Positions 270-61,373 are shown, numbered from the stretch's first letter. The stretch: DNA of 64,000 nucleotides from Methylobacterium frigidaeris (GCA_036946295.1 JAQIJK010000002.1:122350-186349); one strand, 5' to 3'. Notes: generated by a model not told the origin, from the sequence alone. Translations and numbers: made by a program.

Positions 270-376
270 TCATGCGGTTTCCGACTGATCGCTTCGCGAT
301 GCGGAAACCAGCTTCGCTCTGCGCCGCGCGGGCTGGTGACACGATGTCCGGAACTGATCGTCCGGAAATCGTGTCA
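270..376. repeat. Modular palindromic intergenic repeat, modules B+A
   Basis: TCATGCGGTTTCCGACTGATCGCTTCGCGATGCGGAAACCAGCTTCGCTC..CCGCGCGGGC, then 40-nt hairpin TGACACGATGTCCGGAA..TCCGGAAATCGTGTCA (337-376); recurs throughout the window. Confidence 0.85.
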
Positions 377-519
377 TCAGGGCCCGACTGCCTCGGGTGC
401 CGGTCGGTCCTCGCCCTCGTCCGGGCCCGGAAACGGGTGAGGCCGAGGTCCCCTCCCTGGAGGACGGCTGGCTGGCGGCATCGGAATCCGGGCGCCGAGG
501 ATCCCGGCGCATCCGGGCG

Positions 520-1707
520 TCACGGCCCGTCTCCCGACGGGACGTCGCCGAACCGCCACGCGCCCGTCCCGAGGCGGGGGGCCGCGCCGCCGAGGGCCAG
601 GGCACTGCGGGAGAAGGTGATGGGCGTGCGCAGGCCCGGGATTCCCTCCGGCTCGATCACGAGGCCGCGGGCGGCCACCTGCGGGTCGTGCAGCGCCTCG
701 GCCACGGTGTTGATCGGCCCGCCGGGGACGCCGGCGGCATCGAGGGCCGCGATGAGGCTCTCCCGCGTCTGCAGCACCGTTCGGCCCTCGATGAGCGCGC
801 ACAGCGCGGTGCGGTTCTCCACCCGCCGCGGATTCGTCGCGAAGGCGGGCTCCCGCGCGAGTTCCGGAAGATCCAGAACCCTGCACAGAGCCGCGAACTG
901 GCGGTCGTTGCCGCAGGCGATGATCAGATGTCCGTCCGAGGCCCGGAAAGCCTGATACGGGACGATGTTGGGGTGGGCATTGCCCATCCGGCGGGGGACG
1001 CCTCCCCCGGCCAGGAAGTTCATCGCCTGATTCGCCAGCACCGCGACCCCGCTGTCGAGCAGGGACAGGTCGACGTGCTGGCCGAGCCCCGAGCGTTCCC
1101 GCTCGGCGAGCGCCGCCTGGATGCCGACGACGCCGTAGAGGCCGGTGAAGATGTCGATCCAGGCGACGCCGACCTTCTGCGGCTCGCCGCCGGGGTCCCC
1201 CGTCAGATCCATGATCCCGCACAGGCCCTGGATCAGGAAGTCGTAGCCGGGTCTCGCGGAGCGCGGCCCGCTCTGGCCGAAGCCGGTCACGGAGGCGTAG
1301 ACGACGCGCGGATTCAGCGCGGCGACGCCGGCGTAGTCGAGGCCGAACTTCGCGAGGCCGCCGACCTTGAAGTTCTCGATCAGCACGTCGGCCGATCCGA
1401 TCAGGTGCTTGAGGCGCGCGAGATCGTCCGGGTCGCGGAAGTCGCAGGTGACGGACGTCTTGCCGCGATTGGCCGCGTGGAAATAGGCCGCCGCCACCTC
1501 GGGATCCCCGGAGGCGTCCGGCCGTTCGACGAAGGGCGGCCCCCAGAGCCGGGTGTCGTCGCCCTCGGGGCTCTCGACCTTGATCACCGTCGCGCCGAGA
1601 TCGGCCAGAGTCTGGCCGATCCAGGGACCGGCCAGGATGCGGGCGATCTCGACCACCTTCAGGCCGTGCAGGGGCGGGAGGCCGTTCGGCGCTGCCGTTC
1701 CGTTCAT
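520..1707 (-). CDS. CaiB/BaiF family III CoA transferase (likely succinyl-CoA:glutarate CoA transferase)
   Basis: LHGLKVVEIARILAGPW, VIKVESPEGDDTR, NRGKTS, ENFKVG, GYDFLIQGLCG; directly downstream of gcdH. Confidence 0.9.
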   Translation of the reverse strand: MNGTAAPNGLPPLHGLKVVEIARILAGPWIGQTLADLGATVIKVESPEGDDTRLWGPPFVERPDASGDPEVAAAYFHAANRGKTSVTCDFRDPDDLARLKHLIGSADVLIENFKVGGLAKFGLDYAGVAALNPRVVYASVTGFGQSGPRSARPGYDFLIQGLCGIMDLTGDPGGEPQKVGVAWIDIFTGLYGVVGIQAALAERERSGLGQHVDLSLLDSGVAVLANQAMNFLAGGGVPRRMGNAHPNIVPYQAFRASDGHLIIACGNDRQFAALCRVLDLPELAREPAFATNPRRVENRTALCALIEGRTVLQTRESLIAALDAAGVPGGPINTVAEALHDPQVAARGLVIEPEGIPGLRTPITFSRSALALGGAAPRLGTGAWRFGDVPSGDGP

Positions 1708-1726
1708 GACCGCGCGCTCCTCTCGA

Positions 1727-2941
1727 TCAGAAGGCGGACAGGTCGGTCTGCGCCCGGCCGAGGATCAGGGCGTGGACGTCGTGGGTGCCCTCGTAGGTGT
1801 TCACCGTCTCGAGGTTCTGGGCGTGGCGCATCACGTGGTACTCGATCTGGATGCCATTGCCGCCGTGCATGTCGCGGGCCTCGCGGGCGATGGCCAGCGC
1901 CTTGCCGCAATTGTTGCGCTTGACCAGGGAGACCATTTCCGGCGCGAAGCGGTGCTCGTCCATCAGGCGGCCGACGCGCAGGCTGGCCTGCAACCCCAGG
2001 GCGATCTCGGTCTGCATGTCGGCGAGCTTCCTCTGGTAGAGCTGGGTCGCCGCGAGAGGGCGGCCGAACTGCCTGCGGTCGAGGCCGTACTGGCGGGCGC
2101 GCCGCCAGCAATCCTCCGCCGCACCCATGGCCCCCCAGGAGATGCCGTAGCGCGCCCGGTTCAGGCAGCCGAACGGGCCGCCCATCCCCGAGACCTCCGG
2201 CAGCAGCGCCCCCTCGCCGACCTCGACGCCGTCCATGACGATCTCGCCGGTCACCGAGGCCCGCAGGGAGAGCTTGCCGGCGATCTTCGGGGCGGACAGG
2301 CCCTTCATCCCCTTCTCGAGGACGAAGCCCCGCACCTTGCCGCCGTGGGCGGCCGAGGTCGCCCACACCACGAAGACGTCGGCGATCGGCGAGTTGGAGA
2401 TCCACATCTTGGTGCCGGTCAGGCGATACCCGCCGTCGATGCGGACCGCCCTCGTCGTCATGCCGCCCGGATCCGAGCCCGCATCCGGTTCGGTGAGGCC
2501 GAAGCAGCCGATCCACTCGCCGGAGGCGAGCTTCGGCAGATACCGGCGCCGCTGCTCCTCCGAGCCGTAGGCGTAGATCGGGTACATCACCAGCGACGAC
2601 TGCACGCTCATCATCGAGCGGTAGCCGGAATCGACCCGCTCGACCTCGCGCGCGACGAGGCCGTAGGCGACGTAGGACGCGCCGGCGCCGCCATACTCCT
2701 CGGGGATCGACACGCCGAGGAGACCGGCCGCGCCGAGTTCCCGGAAGATGCCGGGATCCGTCCGCTCCTCCATGTAGTCCGCCTCGATCCGCGGCATCAG
2801 CGTCCCCGCGGCGAAGGCGGCCGCGGAGTCGCGGATCATCCGCTCCTCCTCGGTGAGCTGATCGTCGAGGAGGAACGGATCCGACCAGGCGAAGGCCGTC
2901 CGGCTCTGCGGGCGGGATCCGGGAGCGGGGGTGGTGGGCAT
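1727..2941 (-). CDS. gcdH: Glutaryl-CoA dehydrogenase
   Basis: [28 protein letters not shown]-terminal [19 protein letters not shown]; start placed at ATG 2941 inside ORF 1727..3946. Confidence 0.88.
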
Positions 2942-3031
2942 GGCGCGTCCTCCGTGGCCGAAAAGGCATGCTGATGGACCGCGTCTAGAGGAGGAGGCTC
3001 CCCGGGGTGAAACCCGGTTTGCACGTATGAA

Positions 3032-3048
3032 TATGCCTGTTACGCATA
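3032..3048. promoter_or_regulatory. LysR-type binding box between divergent gcdH and LysR gene
   Basis: TATGC-CTGTTAC-GCATA perfect dyad containing T-N11-A. Confidence 0.6.
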
Positions 3049-3052
3049 GTCG

Positions 3053-4012
3053 GTGACCCGCCCGCGCCGCTTCCTGCCCTCCCTCAGCCTGCTCTCCGCC
3101 TTCGAGGCGGTCCTGCGGAGCGGGTCGACCGCCGCCGCAGCCCGCGAGCTCCACCTCTCCCAGGGAGCGGTCAGCCGGCTGGTCCAGAACCTCGAACAGC
3201 AGCTCGGCCGGCCACTCTTCGAGCGGCAGAGGCGCCGGCTCGTCCCGACCGAGGCCGCCCGCGCCTACGGGCGCGACGTGACCCGGGCCCTCGATCTGAT
3301 CCAGCGCGGCAGCATGGAGTTCGTCGCCAATCCGGGCGGCGGCGTCCTGTCCCTCGCGATCCTGCCGGCCTTCGGCGCCCGCTGGCTCGCGCCGCGGCTC
3401 GGGCGCTTCGCGCTGTCGCATCCCGGCATCACGATCAATCTCGCGACGCGCCTCAAGCGCTTCAACTTCGCGGCGGAAGGCTTCGACGCGGCGATCCACT
3501 TCGGCACCGACGACTGGCGGGAGGCCGGGCACATGAAGCTGTTCGACGAGCGCCTGACGGCCTGCATCGCGCCGGAGCTGCTCGGGGCCCACCCGGTCGC
3601 GGAGGCGCGGGACGTGTGCGGCCTGCCCCTTCTTCGGATCGAGACCCGCCCCGCGGCGTGGGATCTCTGGTTCGCGGCCCAGGGCGGCACGGCGCCCGGC
3701 GGCGGCGGGATGCTCTTCGACCAGTTCGCTCCGATGATCCAGGCCGCCGCCGCGGGGCTCGGCGTCGCCCTGCTCCCGGACTATCTCGCGGAGCCGGAGC
3801 TCGCCGACGGACGGCTGCTGCCGCTGCTGCGCCCGTGCGTCGAGGGAACGGGCGCCTACTGGCTCGTCTGGCCGGCGACCCGCGCCAACTACCCGCCGCT
3901 CAAGGCGCTGCGCACCTGGCTCGGCAACGAGCTGGGCGCATCGCAACCCGGCACGGCGGCCCTCCCGGCACCGGCCGCCAGATCGGCGCGGCCGGCAGGC
4001 CGCGATCGCTGA
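3053..4012 (+). CDS. LysR family regulator (GcvA-like, GcdR-type position)
   Basis: [31 protein letters not shown]; [13 protein letters not shown]; divergent from gcdH. Confidence 0.9.
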
Positions 4013-5258
4013 AGACGATGCAGGTCGGGCTTCCGGTCCGCGCCACCGTCACGCCTGCCGAGAGGGCTCCCGTGCCGGGATCGCGCGTGAAGCGCACGAT
4101 CGTGTCGCTGTCCTCGTTGGCCACGAAGAGGTGAAGGCCGGCCGGGTCCTGCGCGAAGAAGCGCGGCGTCTCGCCCTGCGTGCCGGTCCAGCCGACGGAG
4201 CGCAGCCGCCCGCTGCCGGGCTCGACCGCGAACGCCGCGACCGAGTCGTGCCCCCGGTTGGTCGCGTAGACGAAGCGGCCGTCCGGCGAGACCTCGATCT
4301 CGGCGGCCCGGCTGAAGCCGAGGAAGTCGTCCGGCAGCGCCGGGAGTTCCTGGATCGGGCGCAGCGCGCCGCTGCCGGGCTCGTAGCGGCAGGCCATCAC
4401 GGTCGAGGACAGCTCGTTCACCACGTAGGCGTAGGGACTGCTCGGATGAAACGCGATGTGGCGCGGCCCCTCGCCCTCCCGCGTCGCGGCGGGCCGCTCC
4501 GCGGCGGGGTGGAGCTTCCCCTCCCCGTCGAGGCGATAGGAGAGGATCAGGTCGAGCCCCTTGTCGGGGACGGCGACGAAGCGGCCGGCGGGATCGAACT
4601 GGACCTGATGCGGCTTCGCGAACGGCTGCTCGACCCGGTGCGGGCCGACCCTGCCGGAGATGGGGACGTGATCGACCACCTCGCCCAGCGCGCCGTCGGG
4701 GCCGAGGGCGAGCACGGCGAGACCCGAGACGAAGCCGTCGCGCGTGACGTGGTTGGCGACCAGGAGGTGTCGTCCGGACGGGTCGACGACGAGGTGGACC
4801 GGGTTCCTGCCCCGGCAGGACGCCTGGTTGACGAAGCTCAGGCGCCCGTCCGCGGCATCGACCCGGAAGGCGCTCACCTCGCCCGCGTCGCCATGCACGG
4901 TGTAGAGCATGCGCCGCCCGTGGTCGAAGGCGAGGAAGGACGGGTTCGTCAACCCGTCGAGCAGCTGGATCCGCTCCCAGGCGCTGCCGTCGTCCGGGAC
5001 CCGGTAGACCGCGATGCCGTCCCCGCGGGCGTTGCGCGCCCGGGTCGTGCGGCAACCGACATAGGCGAGAGCGGCCCGGGAACGCGGGCGGGCCGGGCTG
5101 GATCGGGGCGTCATCGGCAGATCCTCCATGGGCATCGTCGAGGAGGCGGCGTGCGCCGTCCGGGGCGGGGCGGCCAGCAGGCCGGCGGCCATCAGGGCGA
5201 GCGCGGCGCGCCGGGGCACCGCCCGCGCGTCCCGGCCCCCGGCCGGGTGCTCGATCAT
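3900..5258 (-). CDS. Lactonase family beta-propeller protein (6-phosphogluconolactonase/cycloisomerase-like) with twin-arginine-like leader
   Basis: [53 protein letters not shown]; leader [17 protein letters not shown]. Confidence 0.85.
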
Positions 5259-5386
5259 CGTCTCCTCCCCGATATGCTTTTTATCATCATAAACCACGTG
5301 TTTCGACGTCCCGCAAGCGGCGAGGTGGACGGAGTGCCGCCCGGAAGGCACAGGAGGCGGGAGAATTCGTCGATGGATGCGCCCCG

Positions 5387-6279: not shown

Positions 6280-6399
6280 TCGGATCCGAATTGCATTTAA
6301 AGATCATATAATGTAGTAACCCGCATCGCCGTCCACGGGCCGCCCAGAGCCTGACCCGGCCCGTCCCCAGAGGATCGACTCCCAGAGGAGGAAACGACG

Positions 6400-10389: not shown

Positions 10390-10392
<3 letters not shown>

Positions 10393-10616
10393 GCAGGTTT
10401 CGCAGAAGCGGTTGGCGGTCTCGCGACGGAAACCCGCGACACGATCATACGATTTCCGTTTGATCGCTTCAGGCGATCCCTGCGGGATCGTGGCGATTGC
10501 TGCGCAATCGCTTTCGCGATGAGGAAATCGGCTTCGCTCAGCTGCGTGGAGCCTTCGGCTCCACCGCGCGGGCCGGTGATACGATTGTCGGAACTGATCA
10601 TCCGCAAACCGTATCA
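10390..10616. repeat. Modular palindromic repeat, modules C+B+A, starting at the aconitase stop codon
   Basis: TGA(stop)-GCAGGTTT..AAACCCGC (10393-10437), B module with nested hairpins, A hairpin TGATACG..CGTATCA (10577-10616). Confidence 0.85.
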
Positions 10617-11421: not shown

Positions 11422-12879
11422 TTGACCGATCGCCACGAGCAGACCCGCATCGGCGCGGAACTCACCCGGGTTGCACCGAGCTCCGATCCGTTCGCCGCCG
11501 CCGTGCGGGCGACGCGGATGCCGATGCTGATCACCGACCCCAATCAGCCGGACAACCCCATCGTCTTCGTCAACACGGCGTTCTCCAGGCTGACCGGTTA
11601 CGCACACGGCGAAATCCTGGGGCGCAACTGCCGGTTCCTGCAGGGTCCGGAGACGAACAGGCAGGACGTCGCCCGCATCCGCGACGCGGTCGAACGGCGC
11701 ATGCCGGTCGAGATCGAACTGCTCAATCACAAGAAGAACGGCGAGGTGTTCTGGAATCGCCTGCTCATCTCACCCGTCTTCGATGACGATGGGCATCTCA
11801 CCTACTTCTTCGCATCGCAGTTCGACGTGACCCTGGAGAGGGACCGGCTCGTCCGCCTGCAGCAGGACCGGGACGCGCTGGAAGCCGAGGTGGTACGCCG
11901 CACCGACGACCTGACCCGGGCCGAGGAGCGGTTGCGCTTCATGCTCAAGGCCGGCCGCTTCGGCACGTGGTCGCTCGACCTGGCCGACCGGCGGCTGGTC
12001 GCCTCCGACCTGTGCAAGGAGAACTTCGGCCGCCCGGCCAGGGAGCCGTTCTCCTACGCCGACCTGCTTTCCGCCATCGATCCGGCCGACGTGGCCTGGG
12101 TCAAGGATGCCGTCCGGCGATCGATCGAGGAGCATACCGAGTACGGGGTCGAATGCCGCGTCAGGACTCCGAAGGGCGAGACCCGCTGGGTCGAGATGCG
12201 CGGGCAGACCTACTACCGGGCCGATGGCAGCCCCCTGAGCATGGCGGGCGTGACCATCGACGTCACCGAGCGCAAGCGCGGCGAGGAGCACCGGAGCCTG
12301 CTGGCGGACGAACTGCACCACCGGGTCAAGAACTCGATGGCGACCATGCAGTCCATCGCCCACCAGACCCTGCGCAATGCCGCCTCGCTGGACGAGGCGC
12401 AGACCACGCTCGACGCGCGCCTGCGCTCGCTGTCGGCGGCGCACGACATCCTGACGCGGGAGAGCTGGGAGGGTGCGACGTTGGCGGAGATCGTGGAGGA
12501 GGCCCTGCGGCCGTTCCGCATGAGCGACGGTCGGCGGTTCAGGACCGGCGGGCCGGACGTCCGTCTGTCGCCGCGGCTGGCTCTGGCCTTCGTGATGGCG
12601 CTGCACGAGCTGGCGACCAACGCGGTGAAGTACGGTGCGCTGTCGAACGACCGCGGCCGGGTGATCCTCGACTGGGACATCGTGGACGGGATGAAGCCCG
12701 ACCGTCTCTGGCTGCGCTGGGAGGAGATCGGCGGGCCGCCGGTCACCCCGCCGACCCGCAAGGGGTTCGGATCGCGAATGATCGAGCGGGTGCTGGCCGC
12801 CGAGATCGGCGGCGCTGCCGAGGTCGACTATCGCCCGCGGGGTGCCGTGTTCACCCTGGAGGCGCCGCTGCCCGAGTGA
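11422..12879 (+). CDS. Blue-light LOV-PAS-HWE histidine kinase
   Basis: GRNCRFLQG with photoactive Cys; second PAS; ELHHRVKN H-box, ELATNAVKYG, WEE and GFG; RBS GAGGAG before TTG 11422. Confidence 0.92.
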   Translation: MTDRHEQTRIGAELTRVAPSSDPFAAAVRATRMPMLITDPNQPDNPIVFVNTAFSRLTGYAHGEILGRNCRFLQGPETNRQDVARIRDAVERRMPVEIELLNHKKNGEVFWNRLLISPVFDDDGHLTYFFASQFDVTLERDRLVRLQQDRDALEAEVVRRTDDLTRAEERLRFMLKAGRFGTWSLDLADRRLVASDLCKENFGRPAREPFSYADLLSAIDPADVAWVKDAVRRSIEEHTEYGVECRVRTPKGETRWVEMRGQTYYRADGSPLSMAGVTIDVTERKRGEEHRSLLADELHHRVKNSMATMQSIAHQTLRNAASLDEAQTTLDARLRSLSAAHDILTRESWEGATLAEIVEEALRPFRMSDGRRFRTGGPDVRLSPRLALAFVMALHELATNAVKYGALSNDRGRVILDWDIVDGMKPDRLWLRWEEIGGPPVTPPTRKGFGSRMIERVLAAEIGGAAEVDYRPRGAVFTLEAPLPE

Positions 12880-13017
12880 TGCGGTTCTGGGACGATCGGT
12901 TCCGGGAACCTTATCGAAGCCCGCGCGGCGCGTAAGCGAAGCCGGTTTCCGCATCGCGAAAGCGATGGCGCAGGGATCGCCACGATCCCGCGGGGATCGC
13001 CGAGCGATCGACCGGAC
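12877..13017. repeat. Modular palindromic repeat, module A + inverted B, starting at LOV kinase stop codon
   Basis: TGA(stop)TGCGGTTCTGGGA..TCCGGGAACCTTATCG then GCCCGCGCGG..AGCGAAGCCGGTTTCCGCATCGCGAAAGCGA. Confidence 0.85.
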
Positions 13018-17484: not shown

Positions 17485-17653
17485 TCGTACGGTTCTCGAT
17501 GGGTCGCTTCGGGCGATTCCTGCGGGATCGCGGCGATTGCGGAGCAATCGCGACGCGAGGCGGAAACCGGCTTCGCTCATGCGTGCGGAGCAAAGCTCCG
17601 CCGCGCGGGCTGGTGATGCGGAATCCGGAAGCAATCTTCCGGATTCCGCATCA
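17485..17653. repeat. Modular palindromic repeat, modules B+A, ending at Mo-enzyme stop codon
   Basis: A hairpin TGATGCGGAATCCGGAAG-CAAT-CTTCCGGATTCCGCATCA (17614-17653, perfect 18-bp stem, two GANTC sites); terminal TCA is the minus-strand stop. Confidence 0.88.
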
Positions 17654-21097: not shown

Positions 21098-21192
21098 CGT
21101 ATCACCGGCCCGCGCGGCGCGGAGCAAAGCTCTGCGCGCACCTGAGCGAAGCCGGTTTCCGCGTTGCGAAGCGATCAATCGGAAATCGTATA
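21098..21192. repeat. Modular palindromic repeat (decayed A end + inverted B) in divergent promoter region
   Basis: CGTATCACCGGCCCGCGCGGCGCGGAGCAAAGCTCTGCGC..TGAGCGAAGCCGGTTTCCGCGTTGCGAAGCGATCAATCGGAAATCGTATA. Confidence 0.8.
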
Positions 21193-21213
21193 ACAGGCAG
21201 CGGAGGTCGAAGA

Positions 21214-23710: not shown

Positions 23711-23842
23711 TCATACGGTTTCCGGAAGATTACTTCCGGAAACCGTATGATCAGCCCGCGCGGCGCCTGAGCGAAACCGGTTTCCGCATCGCGAAAGCGA
23801 CCGCTCGCGGTCGCCTGAAGCGATCAACCGGAAATCGTATCA
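23711..23842. repeat. Modular palindromic repeat, A + inverted B, ending at urtE stop codon
   Basis: Perfect 18-bp stem TCATACGGTTTCCGGAAG-ATTA-CTTCCGGAAACCGTATGA (23711-23750); B ends CGTATCA, where TCA is the urtE stop. Confidence 0.9.
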
Positions 23843-27530: not shown

Positions 27531-27664
27531 ACCCTCCCCCCTCTGCGCGAGGCTGTCCGGGGAAAAGAAATGGCGCATCTCCCCTCTCCTACTCGGGAGA
27601 GGGGATCCCGCGCTTGATTTCAAAAGGAATTTTCCCTGGACAGCCGTGCGCGGAGGGGGAGGGT
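27531..27664. repeat. Nested inverted-repeat element (CCCTCCCC..GGGGAGGG arms enclosing a CCCCTCTCC..GGGAGAGGGG hairpin)
   Basis: Imperfect ~32-bp terminal IRs 27531-27563 and 27633-27664; inner hairpin 27581-27604 matches arms of element 40678-40856. Confidence 0.8.
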
Positions 27665-33504: not shown

Positions 33505-33557
33505 GCAGACTTGCGTTGGCACGCCAACGCTTCGTCCGCTCGGGTTCTTGTCGTGCC

Positions 33558-33602
33558 GCAGGTTTTCGTCGCGAAACCGGTGACCGCTTCTGCGAAACCT
33601 GC
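33558..33602. repeat. Repeat module C (inverted copy of 10393-10437)
   Basis: GCAGGTTTTCGTCGCGAAACCGGTGACCGCTTCTGCGAAACCTGC. Confidence 0.75.
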
Positions 33603-33808
33603 TTGGAGCAGGGTCCGATCACGCTGCAATCGAACCCTGCTTTATGTCATTGATTTTGCAACATTTTATGCGACGAAGGGGTGTCCAATGCTCCAGCGGG
33701 CCTGACCGCCTCCCGCCTCCGGATGCCCACGCCCGGGAGCCGCAGGCCGACGTCTCCACCGTTCGCCGTGAGGAGAGGCGGCCGGTGCGAACGATGCCGG
33801 CAACACAA

Positions 33809-38072: not shown

Positions 38073-38150
38073 GGCGGTTCTCCCCGGACGTGAGGATCGG
38101 GGCGGCGGGAGCGGGCGCCCCCGCCGCGACGAAGTCAGGACAGGACCGCC

Positions 38151-38258
38151 TCATACGATTTCCGACTGATTGCTTCGCAATGCGAAAATCGGCTTCGCTC
38201 AGGCGTCGCGCGGGCTCGTGATACGATGTCCGGAAGATTCCTTCCGGACATCGTATCA
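38151..38258. repeat. Modular palindromic repeat, B+A, ending at SBP stop codon
   Basis: Perfect 18-bp stem TGATACGATGTCCGGAAG-ATTC-CTTCCGGACATCGTATCA (38219-38258); terminal TCA is the minus-strand stop. Confidence 0.9.
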
Positions 38259-40637: not shown

Positions 40638-40677
40638 GCCCCTCGTCCTGCCTGCCATGCCTTGGATCGTTCGAGCC

Positions 40678-40856
40678 CGGGATCCCCTCTCCCGAGTGGG
40701 AGAGGGGTAGGGGCGACAGAAGATCGCGCAGGGTGGTTCGGCTTCCGCAATGATCCTGAACGGTCGAGCTGCGCAGCTCGACCCTGGACGCCTCATTCCG
40801 AAGCCGGGCCACCCTCACCCCTGTCCCCTCTCCCACCCGGGAGAGGGGGACCCGCG
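40678..40856. repeat. CIR/RIME-like element with hairpin-forming terminal inverted repeats
   Basis: Left arm GATCCCCTCTCCCGAGTGGGAGAGGGGTAGGGG; right arm CCCCTGTCCCCTCTCCCACCCGGGAGAGGGGGACCC; inner hairpin GGTCGAGCTGCGCAGCTCGACC. Confidence 0.82.
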
Positions 40857-40902
40857 TTCGAAATTTATACCTACATTACAGAGGGTTGCAGCCCACCCCG
40901 CC

Positions 40903-53754: not shown

Positions 53755-54675
53755 TTGGATGCCTGCATGATCTTCTCGGAGGCGCTCGATCGCCTTGAGC
53801 AGCTCGGCCGTGCGAGCGCTGCGCTCCTGCCGGGTCTCGCCATCGCTCTCGTCTTGTTCGGCCTCGGCCTGCTCGTTGCCCGCCTCGTACGTTCTGGAGT
53901 TCGACGAGCTGCCGCGATGCGTAGCGCATCGTCCGGTTCCGCCGCCGTTCTCGGGCGCATTGCCGGTGGCGTGACTGTCCTCGTTTCGTTCCTGGTCGCC
54001 GCCTCGGTGGCCTTCCCGTCGGTCTCGGCCGCCGACCTGTTCAACCTGCTCGGCATCGGCGGCGTGGCCATCGGCTTCGCCTTCCGCGACGTCCTGCAGA
54101 ACCTTCTCGCGGGCATCCTCATCCTGCTGACCCGCCCCTTCGTCATCGGCGACCAGATCCGAGCAGGTTCGTACGAAGGCACGGTCGAGGATGTCTGGGT
54201 GCGTGCCACGGTGCTGCGCACCTACGACAACCAGCGTGTCCTGATCCCGAACGCCATCCTGTTTGTCGACAAAATCACCGTCATCACCGCGCACGAGAAG
54301 CGCCGCCTCTCCTTCCCTCTGACTATCGGCAACGGCGACGACATCAGGGAGGCGCGTCGGGTGATCACGGAAGCTCTGCGCGCGACCGAGGGAGTGCTCG
54401 CAGATCCACCGCCGGAGGCCCTGGTCACCGGCCTCGGAGCCGCTGGCGTCGACATGACGGCACGTCTCTGGATCGATCCGCCCCGGCGTCGCGACGCGAT
54501 GGACGCGCTCGATCAGGCCATCGCGAACGTGAAGGAGGCGCTGGCCGCTGCCGGCATCGACCTGCCGTACCCGACAACCCAGGTGCTGTTCCATGATCAG
54601 ACCGAGGACACCGACGGCGACCGCTCTCGCCAGCGCGAAGGCTGGCCCGTGGGGAGGGAAGATCGAGGGCACTGA
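53755..54675 (+). CDS. MscS family mechanosensitive channel
   Basis: LGIGGVAIGFAFRDVLQNLLAGI..RPFVIGDQI, DNQRVLIPN. Confidence 0.9.
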   Translation: MDACMIFSEALDRLEQLGRASAALLPGLAIALVLFGLGLLVARLVRSGVRRAAAMRSASSGSAAVLGRIAGGVTVLVSFLVAASVAFPSVSAADLFNLLGIGGVAIGFAFRDVLQNLLAGILILLTRPFVIGDQIRAGSYEGTVEDVWVRATVLRTYDNQRVLIPNAILFVDKITVITAHEKRRLSFPLTIGNGDDIREARRVITEALRATEGVLADPPPEALVTGLGAAGVDMTARLWIDPPRRRDAMDALDQAIANVKEALAAAGIDLPYPTTQVLFHDQTEDTDGDRSRQREGWPVGREDRGH

Positions 54676-54712
54676 TACGGTTTTCGGACGATCAGTTCCG
54701 AAAACCGTATCA
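54673..54712. repeat. Solo module A hairpin starting at MscS stop codon
   Basis: TGA(stop)TACGGTTTTCGGACGATCAGTTCCGAAAACCGTATCA. Confidence 0.85.
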
Positions 54713-54892: not shown

Positions 54893-54940
54893 AGGTCTTT
54901 GACTTCGGATCGTTCCCGCAAATCGAGGAGTATCGCGATC

Positions 54941-55319: not shown

Positions 55320-55640
55320 ATGCGATATGCACTTGTCTCGAAGACCTGCCTCGGCGCTGCCGGGAGTCTCGGCCTCGTCGTCCTCGCTCTGTCGGGCGCG
55401 TCTCACGCGCAGTCGGTCGGCAGCCGGATCGACCAACCGACCCCCGCGACCCTGCCCTCGGGGACACACCAGGGCAACAATCCGGTCTCGCCGGCCGACC
55501 AGCCAACCGGTCGTGTCGCGCCCCCCAGCGCCATCAGTTCGTCCTCCGACGTGATGAGGTCGGAAGGCTCCGTGCAGGGCGAGGAAAGCAAGGGCAAAAT
55601 CAACCCGATCCAGCATCTCCCCAAGGACATGCGGCGCTGA
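55320..55640 (+). CDS. Small secreted low-complexity protein (106 aa)
   Basis: Signal ending ASHA-Q; P/S/Q-rich mature part. Confidence 0.6.
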   Translation: MRYALVSKTCLGAAGSLGLVVLALSGASHAQSVGSRIDQPTPATLPSGTHQGNNPVSPADQPTGRVAPPSAISSSSDVMRSEGSVQGEESKGKINPIQHLPKDMRR

Positions 55641-55654
55641 GCAGGCGCTGCATC

Positions 55655-55676
55655 TGATCGATCGGAAACCGTATCA
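55655..55676. repeat. Fragment of modular repeat (inverted B end)
   Basis: TGATCGATCGGAAACCGTATCA resembles the end of 23752-23842. Confidence 0.55.
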
Positions 55677-55774
55677 GTGGTCGGGTGGCGCGATCGAGAT
55701 ATGACTGTCGTTGATCTTTCAAGATGAGGTGCGGGCATGGTTTGCAGATCTGAACCGATACCCGTTGCCGTCCC

Positions 55775-57175
55775 ATGATGATCGCAGGCCGAGTGCGCGA
55801 TTGCATAGCGACGCTCGTACGTCGGTCTTTGAGGGAATTCATCGGCCTTCCGCTCATCATCGTGGTTGGGTTCGTCGGCCTTTTCGCGGTGACATACCTT
55901 CTCGACGATGCCCTCTGGAACCGGTCCGGTCCCGCGCCGATTCCCTGGCTGGCCCGTCTGCTCGGCGACGCTTCCGCGATCGCAAGCCTGCTGAGCACGG
56001 TCGCGTCCGGTATGATCACGGTGACCTCGATCACCTTCTCGCTCCTGCTGATAGCTGTACAGCAGACCGCATCGACGCTTTCGACCCACGTCTACGATCA
56101 GTTCATTCAGCGGCGCTCGAACAAGCTCAGTTTCGGCTTCTTCGTCGGCCTCTGCGTGTTCGTGCTGCTGACCCTGGGCAGCGCCGGCGCCGCCCACAGG
56201 CCCGTCTTCGGGGCACTCCTGTCGCTCCTGATGACCGGGGCCGCGCTGTGCATGGTGGTGATCCTGATCTACAGCACCGTCGATCAGATGCGGCCCCACT
56301 CGGTCATCACGGCGATCCATGGCCACACGATCAAGGCCCGCCTGGCGGAACGACACCTGATCGAGGCCACGCGCCGGGCGCCGCGTGACAGCCTGTTGTG
56401 GTCGCAGATCGTCCGTACGGACGGGTACGGCGTGGTCTGCGAGCTGGATGTGACGTCCATCGAGCGATCCGCGTCGGATCACGACGCCGAGATCGAGATC
56501 ATCGCGCGCGTCGGGACCAACGTGGCGTTCCGGGATCCCCTCTATCGCGTGCATGCCCGGCAGCCTTTGCCGGCGGACACCCTGGCCGACCTCGAGGAGG
56601 CGGTCGGGACATCCTTCAAGATCGAGCCCCGGCGGACCATCGACAGGGATGCGGGCTTCGGAATCGAGCAACTCTACTCGATCGCCTGGACCACCGCCTC
56701 GACGTCCAAGCAGAACCCGCAACCAGCGATTCTGGTCTGCCACTGCCTTCGGGATATCATCGCCCGCTGGAGTCGCGCCGACCCGTTCCCGGAACGGCCC
56801 TCGTCACGGGTCGTCTACTCGGACAGGGCTGTGGACGACGCCATCTCGGCGATCGCCTCGATCGGTGTCGCCGCATCGGAGAGTATGCAGAGCACCCTCG
56901 CTGCCGAGATCTGGCGGACCCTCGCAACGCTGATCGACGATGTGTCGGCCGAGCGTCTGCCGGCCCTGACGGACACGGTCCGCCGGCTGATATCCTCGCT
57001 CGGCGATCACGTGTTGACCTGCGATCTGGAGCAGGAACTGAACAGGTGTCGGATCGCCCTGAACAACAGGGGCGAAGGTCCGGTTGCCGACATGGTGCAG
57101 GAGGCGGCTTGCAAGTTGGCGACCAGTATCGGCGAGCTGAATGCCCGCGGGACCCGGGTTTCTGCCGCGAGCTGA
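55775..57175 (+). CDS. DUF2254 family membrane protein
   Basis: LSTVASGMITVTSITFSLLLIAVQQ, GFGIEQL, SKQNPQPA. Confidence 0.8.
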   Translation: MMIAGRVRDCIATLVRRSLREFIGLPLIIVVGFVGLFAVTYLLDDALWNRSGPAPIPWLARLLGDASAIASLLSTVASGMITVTSITFSLLLIAVQQTASTLSTHVYDQFIQRRSNKLSFGFFVGLCVFVLLTLGSAGAAHRPVFGALLSLLMTGAALCMVVILIYSTVDQMRPHSVITAIHGHTIKARLAERHLIEATRRAPRDSLLWSQIVRTDGYGVVCELDVTSIERSASDHDAEIEIIARVGTNVAFRDPLYRVHARQPLPADTLADLEEAVGTSFKIEPRRTIDRDAGFGIEQLYSIAWTTASTSKQNPQPAILVCHCLRDIIARWSRADPFPERPSSRVVYSDRAVDDAISAIASIGVAASESMQSTLAAEIWRTLATLIDDVSAERLPALTDTVRRLISSLGDHVLTCDLEQELNRCRIALNNRGEGPVADMVQEAACKLATSIGELNARGTRVSAAS

Positions 57176-57580
57176 GGTCGATCGCGGAAAGCCTGACGAA
57201 TGCTTGCTGCCTCGCGGCTCGAACGAAGGGTGGCCCCGGCTGAAAGCCACCCTTCACCGGTTCGGCTGGGATCTCCAGCCCCTCGCGCCGCCGGATCCGC
57301 CTCGACCCGATTCCCGTCGGCGCGGAAGCGATCGCACCACCGATCCGAGTCAGATCAGGCTATCCGGACAGCAACGAGGGCCGAGCTTCGCTCGATCCGC
57401 CACGAGTGGCCATGTACTCGTTCAGCTCAACCGACGCGGGCAATTGACAGTCCGTCCAAATGGGCGAAGCATGAACATGCCCGGTTCGTGCGGACGCGGC
57501 TGCTGATGCCGAGTGACTGTGCATGGCCGTGTTCCGACTGAAGCACCATCGGTCGAGGCAGGTGGTGGAGGCGTGGGGAG

Positions 57581-58909
57581 ATGCCTATGGCAGGGATCCG
57601 AGCAACGCCGCTTGGTCGATCGACGCTCGCTTTCGGCGCCGCGTCAGCGCTGTTGATCATGACGGGGCCCGTGCGACCCGACGAGACCTGCCAATCGCCC
57701 TACATGGCGAAGATCACCGGCATCGAGGATTTCGTCTACGTCTGGACGCTCGGGGTCGACGGGCTCGGCGACGGTTCCGACAAGCTCGTCACAATCGACG
57801 CACGCGAGACCTCAGCCACTTTCGGCAAGCCGATCCATGTTGCTTCGGTCGGAGGCCGGCACGAGGCGCACCACGGTGGCTTCACCGACGACCGGCGCCA
57901 GTTCTGGGCCGCCGGCCTGTCGGACAGCAGGATCTTCATCTTCGACGTGGCGACCAGGCCGGCGACGCCCCAGCTCGTCAAGGTGATCGACGACTTCGTC
58001 GAGAGGAGCGGCGGCGCGGCCGGCCCGCATGGTGCCTACGCGCTGCCCGGCCGCATGCTGATCCCAAGCCTGTCGAACCGGCACGGCACCGGTCGAGCTG
58101 CGCTCGTCGAATACTCGAACGAGGGCGACTACGTCACGACGCATTGGTTGCCCACCGATGCCGAGCCGAACGGCGCGAGGATCGAGGGCACGGCGGACGG
58201 CTACGGCTACGATGCCCGCGTGCTGCCGCGCCGCAACGTGATGCTGACCTCGTCCTTCACCGGGCTCGAGAACTACATGCGCCCCCTCGGTGACCTGATG
58301 AAGGACGGCGAGGCGATGAAACGGTTCGGGCACACGATGGTGCTGTGGGACTTCCACGCCCGCCAGCCCCGCACCGTGCTGAGCGTGCCCGGCGTGCCGC
58401 TGGAGATCCGCTGGGCCTGGGGGCCGCAGAACACCTACGCCTTCACCTCGACCGCGCTCACCGCGAAGCTCTGGCTCGTGCGCGAGGACGAACGCGGCGC
58501 CTGGAGCGCCAAGCCTGTGGCCGACATCGGCGACCCGTCCACCCTGCCGGTGCCCGTCGACATCAGCCTCTCGGCCGACGACCGCACGCTGTTCGTCGAC
58601 ACCTTCATGGACGGAACCACCCGCGTCTTCGACGTCTCCGATCCCGACACGCCGCGGCAGATCTACGAGAAGAAAATCGGCTCTCAGCTCAACATGGTCT
58701 CGCAGAGCTGGGACGGCAAACGGATCTACTACACCAGCTCGCTCCTGGCGAACTGGGACAAGACCGGAGCAGAGAACGAGCAGTTCCTCAAAGCCTACGG
58801 CTGGAACGGCAAGGAGCTGGCGCCGCGCTTCGCGATCGACTTCACGGCCGAGCGGCTCGGGCGCCCGCACATGATGGCGTTCGGCGCCACCTCGCTCTAC
58901 GCGAAGTGA
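57581..58909 (+). CDS. SBP56/methanethiol oxidase (MtoX)-like secreted beta-propeller
   Basis: DETCQSP, VWTLG..SDKLVTI, EAHHGGFTDDRR, GPH..LPGRML, GYGYD, PLEIRW, NMVSQSWDGKR, ANWD. Confidence 0.9.
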   Translation: MPMAGIRATPLGRSTLAFGAASALLIMTGPVRPDETCQSPYMAKITGIEDFVYVWTLGVDGLGDGSDKLVTIDARETSATFGKPIHVASVGGRHEAHHGGFTDDRRQFWAAGLSDSRIFIFDVATRPATPQLVKVIDDFVERSGGAAGPHGAYALPGRMLIPSLSNRHGTGRAALVEYSNEGDYVTTHWLPTDAEPNGARIEGTADGYGYDARVLPRRNVMLTSSFTGLENYMRPLGDLMKDGEAMKRFGHTMVLWDFHARQPRTVLSVPGVPLEIRWAWGPQNTYAFTSTALTAKLWLVREDERGAWSAKPVADIGDPSTLPVPVDISLSADDRTLFVDTFMDGTTRVFDVSDPDTPRQIYEKKIGSQLNMVSQSWDGKRIYYTSSLLANWDKTGAENEQFLKAYGWNGKELAPRFAIDFTAERLGRPHMMAFGATSLYAK

Positions 58910-58914
58910 CGCCG

Positions 58915-59586
58915 ATGCGACCCGCGGTACTCCTCGGCCTCGCGGCGCTGGCCTTCGGTGCCGCGGCCCTCGCTCACGACGCCCACCCGCCGCGGCCGGA
59001 AGCGGCGGCCGTCTTCCCCATCCCGCCGCCGGGGAGCTATCGCCTGCCTGCGATCAAGCCTGCGGCGAGGGGCAGCGTCCTCGACGAGGCCGGCCGTCCG
59101 CGGGACCTCCTGGGCGACGCGGGCGGCATCACGGTGCTGGCACTGATCTACACGCGCTGCGGCGACGTCTGCCCGCTTGCCAGCGCCGACATGGCTCGGC
59201 TGCAGGACCTCGCCGCGACGGACCCGGCCGTGGGGCGCCGGATGCGCCTCGTCACGCTGAGCTTCGACCCCGAGCACGACACGCCGGAGGTGATGCGCGA
59301 CTTCGCCGCCGGGTGGCGCTCCGCCGATCCCCTCGCACCTCCCTGGGCCTTCCTCACGGCGCCCGGCAGGGCTGAGATCGCGCCGATCCTGGCGGCCTAC
59401 GGGCAGCGCGTCGATGGCGGCCCAAACGGGGCACTGAATCACGTCTTCCGCGCCTTTCTGATCGATTCCGGGTGCCGCGTGCGCAACATCTACAGCCTCG
59501 ACTTCTTCGAACCCGCGCTCGTCCTCACCGACGTCCGCACGCTGCTTCTCGAGGAATCCGGCTCCGGGGAGGCGCAGGACCGCTGA
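58915..59586 (+). CDS. SCO1/SenC copper chaperone
   Basis: IYTRCGDVCP (CxxxC), SFDPEHDTPE, LNHV. Confidence 0.9.
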   Translation: MRPAVLLGLAALAFGAAALAHDAHPPRPEAAAVFPIPPPGSYRLPAIKPAARGSVLDEAGRPRDLLGDAGGITVLALIYTRCGDVCPLASADMARLQDLAATDPAVGRRMRLVTLSFDPEHDTPEVMRDFAAGWRSADPLAPPWAFLTAPGRAEIAPILAAYGQRVDGGPNGALNHVFRAFLIDSGCRVRNIYSLDFFEPALVLTDVRTLLLEESGSGEAQDR

Positions 59587-59617
59587 GCGCTGCGTTTCGA
59601 GGTGAGGAGCGTAGGTC

Positions 59618-61336
59618 ATGGTGAAGTCCAGGGCTGATCCTCGCCGCTCGCTCTTCGCGAAGTACTTCGTCGTGGTGTTCACCGCGGTGGCGCTGCCCCT
59701 GTTCGCGAATGGGGGGCTGGAGGCGTGGTTGAGCTACCGTGACCGGCGCGACCAGCTGCACGCGCTGCTCGGCCTGGAGGCGCGAGCGGCCGCCCTCCGC
59801 ATCCAGGGCTTCATCGACACCATCCGCGAGCAGCTCGGCTGGATGGTGCAGTTGCCCTGGACACCGGCGGCAGAGGATCGCCAGCGCCTCGACGCCCTGC
59901 GCTTGCTGCGACAGGTGCCCGCCGTCGTGCAGCTCACCCTCATCGACGGGGATGGCCGCGAGCGGCTGCATGTCTCGCGCGTCAGCCTCAACCGGATTGG
60001 GAGCGGCGCCGACCGCTCGGCCGATCCGGCCGTGGCCGGAGCCCGGCCAACGCGGGTATGGTACGGGCCGGTGACCTATCACCGCGGTTCCGAACCCTTC
60101 ATGACGATGGCGGTGGCAGGCAACCGCGCTTCCGTCGGCGTGGCGGTTGCGGAGATCAACCTCAAGCTGATCCGGGACGTGATCTCGGGGATCCGGGTCG
60201 GCAACACCGGACAAGCCTTCGTGCTCGACGGACCGGGTCGGCTGATCGCCCATCCGGACATCAGCCTCGTGCTGCGCGGCGCCGATGATCCCGCGGCGCG
60301 GTCTCTCGCGACCCTGCGCGCGGCCGGGGGCACGGCGACGGGCATGGACGCCCTCGGGCGCAACGTCATCGCTGCGACGGCCGGGATCCCTGGCGTCGAC
60401 TGGACGGTGGTGGCGATGCAGCCTACCGCGGAAGCGTTCGAGTCGATCTCGCGAGCACTCCTCCGCACCGGCGCGCTCATCCTTCTCGGCATCCTCTTCG
60501 CCGCCGCGCTCGCGTACGAGCTGGCACGGCGTATGACCGGCCCGATCCGGCTGCTCGAACACGGCACGCAACGGATTGGCTCCGGAGATTTCGGGCACCG
60601 CATCGAGATTGCCTCGGCGGACGAACTCGGCCGGCTCGCCGCACGGTTCAATGCGATGGCGACTGAACTCGCGCTGTCGCAGGAACGGCAGGAGCGCATC
60701 GGGCGCCTGAGGCGCTTTCTTGCCCCGCAGGTCGCCGAACTCGTCGATCGCTGCGACGATGACGGTGTCCTCGATGGACGACGTGTCGAGGTTGCGGTCG
60801 TCTTCGGCGACTTGCGCGGCTTCACCGCCTTCTCGGCCGGTTCGCCACCCGAGGTGGTGATCGAGGTTCTCGGCGAATACTTCGCGGCTTTGGGCGACGT
60901 GATCACGTCTCACGGCGCCACCCTGGTCACCTTCACCGGCGACGGCCTGATGGCTCTGGTGAACGCTCCCGTTCCCGCACCGGATCCCGGCTTCGCCGCC
61001 GTGCGACTCGCCGTGGCCATGCAGGAGGCGGTCCGGCCGCTCGCCGTGGGGTGGGACGTCAAGAGTTATGGCATCGGGTTCGGCGTCGGCGCCGCGATGG
61101 GACCTGCGACCGTCGGGCGGATCGGCTACGAGGGCCGCTCCGACTACACGGCGATCGGACCGGTGGTGAACCTCGCCGCCCGCCTCTGCGCTGCCGCCGC
61201 GGACGCGCAGATCCTGATCGACACGGCTCTGGCCGAAGCCGTGCGCGGGCGCCGTGCCGTCACGCCCCTCGGCACGCTGTCGCTGAAGGGGTTGTCGGGG
61301 AGTGTGCCGGTCTTCGCTGTCGCGTATGGGTTGTGA
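59618..61336 (+). CDS. Class III nucleotidyl cyclase with Cache and HAMP domains
   Basis: TM-Cache-TM-HAMP (DELGRLA); FGDLRGFT, FTGDGLM, YTAIGPVVNLAARL. Confidence 0.9.
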   Translation: MVKSRADPRRSLFAKYFVVVFTAVALPLFANGGLEAWLSYRDRRDQLHALLGLEARAAALRIQGFIDTIREQLGWMVQLPWTPAAEDRQRLDALRLLRQVPAVVQLTLIDGDGRERLHVSRVSLNRIGSGADRSADPAVAGARPTRVWYGPVTYHRGSEPFMTMAVAGNRASVGVAVAEINLKLIRDVISGIRVGNTGQAFVLDGPGRLIAHPDISLVLRGADDPAARSLATLRAAGGTATGMDALGRNVIAATAGIPGVDWTVVAMQPTAEAFESISRALLRTGALILLGILFAAALAYELARRMTGPIRLLEHGTQRIGSGDFGHRIEIASADELGRLAARFNAMATELALSQERQERIGRLRRFLAPQVAELVDRCDDDGVLDGRRVEVAVVFGDLRGFTAFSAGSPPEVVIEVLGEYFAALGDVITSHGATLVTFTGDGLMALVNAPVPAPDPGFAAVRLAVAMQEAVRPLAVGWDVKSYGIGFGVGAAMGPATVGRIGYEGRSDYTAIGPVVNLAARLCAAAADAQILIDTALAEAVRGRRAVTPLGTLSLKGLSGSVPVFAVAYGL

Positions 61337-61373
61337 TACGGAATCCGGACGATGACTTCCGGATTTCGTATGA
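61334..61373. repeat. Solo module A hairpin starting at cyclase stop codon
   Basis: TGA(stop)TACGGAATCCGGACGATGACTTCCGGATTTCGTATGA. Confidence 0.85.

Follow-up and report, generated by a model that had tools for sequence, protein, structure and literature searches.

The Rhizobium-specific intergenic mosaic elements (RIMEs) of Sinorhizobium are mosaic palindromic intergenic repeats that serve as targets of insertion sequences, and we know of no TGA target or fixed polarity for them. The REP/BIME and REPIN-RAYT systems of E. coli and Pseudomonas (Nunvar et al. 2010, PMC2817692) comprise hundreds of short palindromic intergenic units, bacterial MITEs such as Correia/NEMIS, ERIC and RUP (PMC2229807, PMC3184786) are under 200 nt with terminal inverted repeats and a short target repeat, and elements of the IS1031 group prefer 5′-TNA-3′ and generate a 3-bp repeat, with TGA among the documented triplets (PMC12016507). 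Hairpin repeats numbering hundreds per genome can also serve as recognition sites for a small GIY-YIG nuclease (PMC11893778), and E. coli REPs lying at most 15 nt from a stop codon are associated, in the summary given in PMC12306157, with ribosome stalling and lower expression. We describe here a repeat family that is without annotation in public records and has no Rfam match at gathering score within the 64-kb window (the whole stretch of DNA analysed). We consider it likely that these are small mobile elements, non-coding and non-autonomous, that are restricted to a single Methylobacterium clade, a judgement that covers their structure, their insertion at TGA and their docking on stop codons as a by-product, all taken together.

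A genome-wide search, as proposed in the preliminary description of the window, recovered 578 loci with ~1,250 terminal arms, amounting to roughly 1% of this 5.75 Mb Methylobacterium genome; the nhmmer profile of hairpin A (module A) matched 378 loci, 306 of them at full length, and a 12-nt arm matrix found 1,251 arms as against 69 in a reversed-sequence control. That description had listed 11 copies built from interchangeable modules A, B and C. Repeat sequence is present at all 11 coordinates, but A and B are the two ends of a single fixed-order composite of 108-170 nt that runs from an 18-bp hairpin A through a spacer to hairpin B and may include small hairpin cassettes. Module C is a distinct family of about 14 copies (10390-10446 and 33551-33603 in the window) that merely adjoins a composite at 10445, and two of the 11 copies therefore belong elsewhere. 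The composite core is 105 nt and optional hairpin cassettes of 17-22 nt extend it to about 170 nt, the clean composites (n = 152) falling into size classes of 108, 125-130, 147 and 167-170 nt; overall, composites range from 80 to 193 nt (median 148) and have no coding capacity. Hairpin A forms the left end and hairpin B, of the same polarity, the right end, and their outer arms constitute 18-nt terminal inverted repeats with the first letters TACGRNTTYCGG; the master copy of M. carpenticola reads TACGGTTTCCGGA[A/T]GATC at both ends. The hairpin foot TGA/TACG is retained in >85% of copies. Perfect 18-bp stems with different arm sequences do occur at 17614, 23711 and 38219, and the compensatory change read from them is upheld by real covariation of the arms within copies (15.35 paired positions versus 14.11 ± 0.09 with shuffled partners), although perfect stems are a minority (41 of 266 copies, 15%; mean 15.3 of 18 positions paired). 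Copies decay: truncated ones occur and imperfect stems are the majority. The composite family is also a specific landing site for an IS110-family element, and three copies into which 0.69 kb of foreign DNA is inserted have a rare variant of the A arm in common while occupying different TGA sites.

The copies in the window are collected in Table 1, with gene positions, here and genome-wide, from our own codon-usage caller (82% coding density, 96% self-sensitivity) rather than curated annotation. On these calls, all seven genes that had been claimed to end on a copy do have its terminal TGA/TCA as their stop codon, and Pfam confirms the seven identities (aconitase, PAS/HWE kinase, molybdopterin enzyme, ABC ATPase, periplasmic binding protein, MscS and cyclase). 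The three operon positions likewise hold (Mo enzyme-SCFA transporter, binding protein-permease and ABC ATPase-FmdA), with the operon copies lying between a stop and the next ribosome-binding site.

Table 1. Repeat copies in the 64-kb window, with flanking triplets, neighbouring genes and empty sites in relatives.
Feature	Coordinates	Strand	Flanks and context
Composite, 107 nt	270..376	-	B to A on + strand; TCA (270-272) ... TCA (374-376); off stop codon; nearest minus-strand gene call ends at 520
Module C copy, separate family	10390..10446	+	First TGA 10390-10392 = aconitase stop codon
Composite, 172 nt	10445..10616	-	Spacer hairpin and two loop cassettes; TCA...TCA flanks; adjoins module C
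Composite, A hairpin and B end both decayed	12877..13010	+	TGA 12877-12879 = PAS/HWE histidine kinase stop
Composite, 169 nt	17485..17653	-	A-end TCA 17651-17653 = molybdopterin enzyme stop; other side = ribosome-binding site and start (17471) of SCFA-transporter gene; distal triplet copy decayed to TCG; empty site in M. carpenticola (L014) CTCCTTC-TCA-AGCATCGAG
5′-truncated copy, spacer and B, without A hairpin	21098..21196	+	Sits between CGTA and TAA; promoter-like region, uninterrupted in three relatives
Composite, 132 nt, rare reversed polarity	23711..23842	+	TCA...TCA in A-to-B orientation; inner triplet TGA; B-end TCA 23840-23842 = stop of urtE-like ABC ATPase; A end overlaps upstream ATG of FmdA reading frame; bare TCA at urtE-like stop, without element, in M. 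oryzihabitans (L041)
Module C copy 2, separate family	33551..33603	-	
Minimal composite, 108 nt	38151..38258	-	A-end TCA 38256-38258 = binding-protein stop; TCA...TCA flanks; within operon, between binding-protein stop and permease gene; empty sites in M. currus (L001), M. oryzihabitans (L042), M. carpenticola (L043)
Lone A hairpin, 40 nt (A-only or 3′-truncated)	54673..54712	.	TGA 54673-54675 = MscS-like gene stop
B-end arm fragment, about 22 nt	55655..55680	-	
A hairpin (TGA...TGA) and spacer remnant (A-only or 3′-truncated)	61334..61385	+	TGA 61334-61336 = Cache/HAMP cyclase stop; convergent gene's stop (TCA 61386-61388) directly after

Read in the A-to-B orientation, 120 of the 152 clean composites are flanked by TGA...TGA and 4 by TCA...TCA (120 vs 4, binomial p = 9e-31), and eight orthologous empty sites in relatives each display a single TGA/TCA. 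These comprise the binding protein-permease and Mo enzyme-transporter junctions, the urtE stop, C1:4609305, C1:3734984, C1:3520677, C1:2500991 and C1:4825673, the last being an intergenic TGA and not a stop. The single TGA of the empty sites and the one-sided flank counts together identify the composite as a mobile element that duplicates a TGA target and inserts with fixed polarity, its mobility being deduced from insertion polymorphism rather than from mechanism. The earlier proposal of a MITE- or BIME-like mobile element that uses a T-N-A triplet without disrupting genes thus stands, since the triplet is duplicated between empty and filled alleles, but the target is specifically TGA on one strand rather than a generic TNA. 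In two filled/empty pairs the empty allele carries TAA or TAG in place of TGA; TGA may not be obligatory, or these stops may have changed later. Insertion occurs at 5′-TGA-3′ in a single polarity with hairpin A beside the target TGA and leaves TGA on both sides of the composite, and the left TGA pairs with an inner TCA to form the bottom three base pairs of hairpin A. An inner TGA accompanies the outer TCA in three of six reversed copies as against none of 133 normal copies (Fisher p = 5e-5), the central base of the outer triplet covarying with the internal complementary triplet. Counted against the replication fork, orientation comes out at 71:72, in a genome whose cumulative GC skew gives no credible origin or terminus. 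The family is absent from 105 of the 120 sampled Methylobacterium species, and M. carpenticola has about 213 matches, in a sample of which all 20 are near-identical 108-nt units with TGA..TGA in the same polarity (9 of 20 on stop codons); these ~213 near-identical copies point to a recent burst.

The lack of a cognate transposase noted for the window extends to the whole genome, where we found no long or transposase-bearing element with the family arms, both PF01797 (RAYT/IS200 Y1 HUH) and PF13586 (IS1031-type DDE) being absent. TnpB (PF01385) and the Y2 IS91 domain (PF04986) were likewise missing from the carriers examined. A 30:1 polarity toward an asymmetric 3-nt target is unexpected for a DDE transposase, and the known strand-specific families are absent from the carriers. 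We infer that the mobilising enzyme acts in trans. It may, as a tentative preference, be specific to one strand and recognise the hairpins; a classical DDE transposase that generates a 3-bp duplication and whose partner element is lost or unrecognised is a possibility that we hold more loosely. In a more specific form, for which we see only a low chance, a new strand-specific enzyme that is neither Y1 nor Y2 HUH would read the two same-polarity hairpins and choose its target via base pairing with the inner triplet, as the inner TGA with outer TCA of the rare reversed copies suggests; if true, the family would represent a minimal form of insertion guided by nucleic acid, with the commonest stop codon as its natural target.

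An alternative to the reading as a whole is that the composites are ordinary MITEs whose parent, now lost from this genome, was a DDE insertion sequence with a 3-bp duplication at TNA (of the IS1031 subgroup of the IS5 family, or IS3/IS30-like). Such an origin would fit the 18-nt terminal inverted repeats, the 3-nt direct repeat, the non-coding length of <200 nt and the ability to carry cargo, and the TNA-type target and 3-bp repeat match the IS1031 group (PMC12016507). We nevertheless hold it to be somewhat unlikely, as a two-fold symmetric transpososome does not account for the polarity with respect to the target's central G (120:4 here, 20:0 in the recent burst), and this genome has neither PF13586 nor a long element with the family arms. 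Moreover, the small IS5-type element that is abundant in M. carpenticola bears ends (GGGCCTGTTG...) unrelated to those of the family and targets TA/CTAG.

Among element sides with a gene end nearby (n = 372), 176 have the stop codon at offset 0, 24 at -50 to -1 and 2 at positive offsets. The A-end TGA of the composite is a stop codon in 75 of 137 cases (55%), whereas among all TGAs located outside coding bodies the share of stops is 14.2% (p = 1e-28). About 45% of copies lie off stop codons, and for roughly 180 genes, about 4% of the total, an element occupies the stop codon exactly. The docking seen in the window is thus a genuine enrichment across the genome, but its reading as a dedicated property of the family is not supported: a conditional null, in which a random TGA/TCA is drawn within the same emptied intergenic region, expects 47.1 of the 63 docked copies observed (63/114; 0 of 20,000 simulations reach 63). 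Stop usage is 4,088 TGA, 614 TAG and 195 TAA, so that TGA accounts for 83% of gene ends, and TGA is scarce in the intergenic DNA, which is 72% GC. Docking is hence mostly a by-product of the TGA target, the exact position on stop codons following from that target and the rarity of intergenic TGA in a GC-rich genome; the excess of docked copies over the null (63 vs 47) may signify some added preference or selection for stop codons. Downstream of a gene, the stop codon would often be the sole, or one of very few, harmless TGA targets, and insertions in promoters and coding sequence were presumably purged. Convergent gaps hold 39% of copies (16% genome-wide) and divergent gaps 8% (16% genome-wide), and co-orientation in tandem gaps is 61:20.

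Alternatively, the repeats could be recruited 3′-end RNA elements (stabilisers, translation-termination modulators or protein-binding sites) held at stops by a selected host function, with their spread being secondary. The composite at 38151..38258 folds at -57.6 kcal/mol as RNA (z = -6.4; as DNA z = -5.8), and transcribed copies would form a very stable predicted 3′ hairpin starting inside the stop codon, which favours such a function, as do docking above the conditional null, the covariation of arms within copies and the effects of stop-proximal REPs in E. coli, as summarised in PMC12306157. We nonetheless judge it improbable: the family is absent from 105 of the 120 sampled species of the genus, and orthologous genes function in its absence; some 45% of copies lie elsewhere than on a stop; decay, truncations and the mere 15% of perfect stems are evident; and the docking fraction is the same in young M. 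carpenticola copies and old ones. In an intrinsic-terminator test the composites showed no U run, the sequence after hairpin A being CCAGCCCGCGCGG and that after hairpin B an arbitrary flank rich in GC. On the preferred reading as TGA-targeting mobile elements, the predicted 3′ hairpin may still stabilise the upstream mRNA or damp termination-coupled expression, as a side effect and not as the cause of the position.

Spread by a RAYT (REP-associated Y1 tyrosine transposase), with the family as a REP/BIME or REPIN population like those of E. coli and Pseudomonas, is very improbable and largely refuted. Though the high copy number, the intergenic palindromic units arranged in mosaics with intervening motifs, the enrichment downstream of genes and the use as an IS110-family landing site, as PMC12288879 describes for REPs, all recall such systems, PF01797 is missing from the five carriers searched (this 99.9%-complete genome, M. 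carpenticola, M. oryzihabitans and two further carriers), with control genomes responding, no GTAG-type tetranucleotide stands at the hairpin foot, and ten genes that lie between inverted arms have ordinary metabolic functions; the preliminary REP/RAYT attribution is accordingly not supported, given that PF01797 is lacking here and in two other heavy carriers. That the repeats are recognised by an Ssn-type GIY-YIG single-strand nuclease (an NTS/SRM-like system), for which the precedent in PMC11893778 and a 97-aa GIY-YIG gene in this genome speak, is scarcely credible and unsupported, since that gene neither co-occurs with nor adjoins the repeats, being present in two species without the family, absent from M. 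carpenticola despite the recent burst, free of flanking elements and 2.3 kb from the nearest arm.

The mobile-element reading provides a simple, testable reason for small hairpin repeats lying so often exactly on stop codons in GC-rich bacteria, namely that, where a short A/T-containing target matches the dominant stop codon, hardly any other landing site is safe. About 4% of genes in this organism now end within an 18-bp hairpin stem, and in several operons a structured insert of 108-170 nt separates a stop codon from the ribosome-binding site that follows, which constitutes a natural series for studying the effects of 3′ structure on termination, mRNA decay and operon polarity in a biotechnologically used methylotroph. 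The strict polarity, the lack of a known transposase and the M. carpenticola burst together make the family a tractable starting point for finding a mobilising enzyme that may be new. Being unannotated, the family will also confuse gene-end and small-RNA predictions in these genomes.

In comparison with known systems, the family resembles REP/BIME and REPIN-RAYT in its hundreds of short palindromic intergenic units, mosaics with variable inserts, bias to gene 3′ ends and convergent gaps, and targeting by IS110-family elements. It differs from them in lacking a RAYT in the carriers examined and in its defined ends, duplicated 3-nt TGA target and clear presence/absence polymorphism, the composite being a fixed two-hairpin unit rather than alternating REPs. 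With the bacterial MITEs it shares terminal inverted repeats, a short target repeat, a non-coding length of <200 nt and copy-number bursts, and with the IS1031-subgroup IS5 elements (PMC12016507) a target triplet of the form TNA and a 3-bp direct repeat; unlike these, it targets only TGA in one polarity (30:1), the duplicated triplet becomes part of its terminal hairpin, and this genome yielded no parent IS that shares its ends. Compared by description, the RIMEs are similar as mosaic palindromic intergenic repeats of the same bacterial order that are targeted by insertion sequences. The IS200/IS605 elements are set apart by their Y1 TnpA and TnpB, neither of which is present in the carriers, whereas the ends of the composite resemble classical inverted repeats and its target is only 3 nt; yet, as in IS200/IS605, insertion is strictly polar and beside a short specific sequence, hairpins of the same strand polarity stand at both ends, the recognised site includes the left flank, and the outer triplet covaries at its central base with a complementary triplet inside the element.

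Across the source genome (the own genome below), a profile search recovers the 40-nt module A hairpin at 378 loci, 306 of them full length. A 12-nt arm matrix, built on purpose without the terminal triplet, finds 1,251 hairpin arms versus 69 in the reversed-sequence control; these arm matches group into 578 loci with a total of ~63 kb (1.1% of the genome). All 11 copies given for the window in the preliminary description are repeat DNA and are linked to each other by repeat detection. Instead of the interchangeable modules proposed there, one ordered composite dominates with 152 clean copies and a further ~85 that have one arm under threshold, and most of the apparent 'B-only' loci have a variant A hairpin overlooked by the arm matrix. 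The composite runs from hairpin A through a spacer, which ends in CCCGCGCGG and may include a 17-nt hairpin, to hairpin B, whose loop holds 0, 1 or 2 hairpin cassettes of 22 nt each; the optional hairpin and the cassettes account for the size classes of 108, 125-130, 147 and 167-170 nt. Together, the outer arms of A and B make up inverted repeats of 18 nt; the two hairpins share the same strand polarity and fold strongly (z = -6.4 for RNA, -5.8 for DNA). The three stems originally cited as perfect are so, but genome-wide this holds for just 41/266, with a mean of 15.3/18 positions paired; pairing within copies is 15.35 versus 14.11 +/- 0.09 for shuffled partners. An Rfam scan of the window matched no family.

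Read in A-to-B orientation, the flanks are TGA...TGA in 120/152 clean composites and TCA...TCA in 4/152 (p = 9e-31), and the extended target consensus displays nothing past TGA except an avoidance of T at position -1. The empty counterparts of filled orthologous sites that had been anticipated exist in relatives, with a single TGA at the insertion point (see table). Two more filled/empty pairs are ambiguous, with a TAA or TAG end in the empty allele, and the chromosomal paralogue of the MscS-like gene was rejected as an empty site, its C-terminus being unrelated. A later deletion at a CCGG microhomology accounts for one 3'-truncated copy, and the 5'-truncated copy at window position 21098 is placed between CGTA and TAA.

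The hairpin is present in 15 of the 120 sampled Methylobacterium species and absent in 105, with large families (pattern matches) in the own genome (302), M. carpenticola (213) and M. oryzihabitans (159); the nearest carriers among the matches listed are M. oryzihabitans TER-1 and M. carpenticola ID0610. All 20 of the 20 copies sampled from M. carpenticola are near-identical 108-nt units with TGA...TGA flanks in one polarity, which argues for a recent burst in this species. With one genome taken per prokaryotic species, a wider scan gave at least 51 matches; those listed lie on Methylobacterium contigs and on one Azospirillaceae MAG contig. Plasmid records also contain the composite without annotation.

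Genes of the own genome (two replicons, 5.75 Mb, 72% GC) were called with our own codon-usage log-likelihood caller (4,897 genes; 96% of own calls recovered), and Pfam agrees with the names first given to ten relevant window genes. The 350-kb replicon that carries the window (bases 122350-186349) has its nearest public plasmid in Methylobacterium currus, at 90.5% identity. Its ends, C2:1-7908 and C2:342526-350440, are an identical 7.9-kb sequence, probably because the overlap of a circular assembly was left untrimmed, and elements in this terminal 7.9 kb are therefore counted twice.

On 176 of the 372 hairpin sides with a gene end at -300 to +45 nt, the gene's stop lies exactly at offset 0; 24 lie at -50 to -1 and 2 at positive offsets. 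As random gene truncation predicts two thirds positive offsets, the stop codon is hit as such and not accidentally supplied. The proposed enrichment of terminal TGAs at stops is borne out by a test free of gene calls (open frame >=60 codons plus codon score), with 75/137 composite A-end TGAs versus 14.2% of the 23,530 TGAs outside coding bodies (p = 1e-28). We also constructed a conditional null, in which the element is deleted and a random TGA or TCA is drawn within the same intergenic region including the flanking stops. This already expects 47.1/114 composites to be docked versus the 63/114 observed, a value attained in 0/20,000 simulations. Since the emptied region has a median of 152 nt with 3.5 TGA/TCA triplets, and TGA is the stop of 83% of genes, the exact docking on stops follows mostly from the TGA target, with a small excess over the null that persists. 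Docking is similarly frequent among the young copies of M. carpenticola (9/20). Convergent gaps are enriched in elements (39% vs 16%) and divergent gaps depleted (8% vs 16%), and in tandem gaps the elements are co-oriented with the upstream gene by 61:20; this is the distribution that a purging of promoter insertions would produce. The cumulative GC skew of the own genome gave no credible origin or terminus for a replication-strand comparison.

At the urtE site, an ATG from the element's terminal TCAT (window 23712-23714) opens the longest FmdA reading frame; the Pfam formamidase profile match starts only at residue 39, and the real start is thus probably downstream of this ATG. Genome-wide, just 3/73 downstream genes apparently use the ATG that faces outward at the B end (CGTATGA).

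Sites and coordinates of the composite family and of other repeats (C1, chromosome contig; C2, 350-kb replicon; L052 and L055, loci of the own genome and M. oryzihabitans, respectively)
Feature	Coordinates	Remark
Binding protein-permease junction	window 38151-38258	empty site with one TGA in M. currus, M. oryzihabitans, M. carpenticola
Mo enzyme-transporter junction	window 17485-17653	empty site with one TGA; in the filled allele the element lies between the stop and the ribosome-binding site of the next gene
urtE stop	window 23711-23842	empty site with one TGA
Four chromosomal stop codons		empty sites with one TGA each
One intergenic TGA, not a stop		empty site with one TGA
Module C copies	window 10390-10446, 33551-33603	about 12 more in C1
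CCCCTCTCCCGAGTGGGAGAGGGG palindromic family	window 27581-27617, 40670-40707, 40825-40862	
GGGCAATCGCTTCAGCGATTG ... CAGGGCCATCGC repeat, ~250-300 nt	C1:5268870-5269175; L055:1875-2123	own genome; M. oryzihabitans
IS110, full length	C1:139360-140936	
IS110, full length	C1:367527-369093	L052
IS110, full length	C1:2401443-2403009	
IS110, deleted	C1:573789, 1463653, 1528634, 3679929, 4177363, 4205708	~0.69 kb

The lack of a cognate transposase, first noted for the window, extends to the whole own genome for four Pfam families. PF01797 (RAYT, IS200) and PF01385 (TnpB), both of which do match control genomes, and PF04986 (IS91) are absent from the own genome and the other heavy carriers, and PF13586 (small IS5-type/IS1031-type DDE) is absent from the own genome. 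As candidate mobilisers, we rejected a multi-copy PF13586-type element of M. carpenticola, whose ends are unrelated and whose target is TA/CTAG; a GIY-YIG/Ssn nuclease (cf. PMC11893778), as the small GIY-YIG gene neither co-occurs with nor adjoins the elements; and ten single genes that lie between inverted arms, each an ordinary metabolic or transport gene. A list of long arm-bounded elements in the own genome consists mostly of chance pairs due to element density, and the only real ones are composites holding an IS110-family insertion.

Three copies at different TGA sites hold a 0.69-kb insert and have the same rare A-arm variant. These cargo copies, together with the inverted repeats and the 3-nt duplication, fit a DDE-type MITE with a TNA target, which is also the target of the IS1031 subgroup (PMC12016507). 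The 30:1 polarity relative to the target's central G and the shared polarity of the two hairpins are instead reminiscent of single-strand transposons. The combination of an outer TGA, inner TCA and right TGA is seen in 92 copies, and an inner TGA occurs just with an outer TCA, in 3/6 reversed copies versus 0/133 (p = 5e-5). Subfamilies with an inner TCC or TCG (25 copies) are likewise at TGA; if pairing matters, the central base of the triplet alone is informative. Hairpin-templated correction after insertion would account for the triplet covariation equally well. The family behaves like a MITE and has the appearance of a BIME, in line with the REP/BIME- or MITE-like element of the early description, but the RAYT expected of a REP system was not found, PF01797 being absent from the own genome and the other heavy carriers.

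The IS110-family element (PF01548 + PF02371) is represented in the own genome by three full-length and six internally deleted copies. In the six deleted copies and L052, it enters the composite between ...CCTGAG and TGAGCGAAGCC in the same orientation, and the B-side junction is likewise seen for the C1:2401443 copy. With one point and orientation of entry, the composite family is a specific landing pad for this element.

Several other repeats share the neighborhood. Module C (TGAGCAGGTTTCGCA...GAAAACCTGCGGCACGAC...), once counted as a part of the family, is a family of its own with about 14 copies and is only adjacent to a composite. It reaches past the 55 nt first noted, begins with TGA in many copies, one of which supplies or occupies the aconitase stop, and is also found in M. 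carpenticola (locus L034). The CCCCTCTCCCGAGTGGGAGAGGGG copies at window 40670-40862 are the arms of a ~190-nt nested palindrome, and the motif is polymorphic between the own genome and M. oryzihabitans (loci L069, L070). At the loci orthologous to window 38100-38256 in two other Methylobacterium species (L044 in genome G087; L045 in G081), the gap between this same binding-protein stop and the permease gene is occupied by another palindromic element (CCCGGGATCCATAACCGC...GCGGTTATGGATCCCGGG), and the junction was accordingly colonised independently by unrelated repeats. For the GGGCAATCGCTTCAGCGATTG ... CAGGGCCATCGC repeat, the own genome and M. oryzihabitans each have a filled site whose orthologue in the other genome is empty; the repeat looks like another mobile non-coding element.

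REPs at <=15 nt from a stop were reported to stall terminating ribosomes (PMC12306157); by analogy, a stable composite hairpin that begins within the stop codon could have such an effect or could protect the upstream mRNA. Any such effect would probably be a consequence of the distribution and not its cause, as the family is missing from most species of the genus and from orthologous operons, and a large number of its copies show decay. We consider the strict TGA polarity, the quantitative account of docking and the missing mobiliser to be the points of interest, and the recent burst makes experiments feasible. Searches of the Methylobacterium literature gave no description of the composite family, and the sole MITE found there, MiniMdi3 (~400 bp), is unrelated. 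The family differs from REP/REPIN systems in lacking their defining RAYT, and from IS200/IS605, IS91 and IS1031, whose transposases were not found for it. Just as REPs are a landing pad for ISPpu9-type elements, so is the composite family for its IS110-family element.
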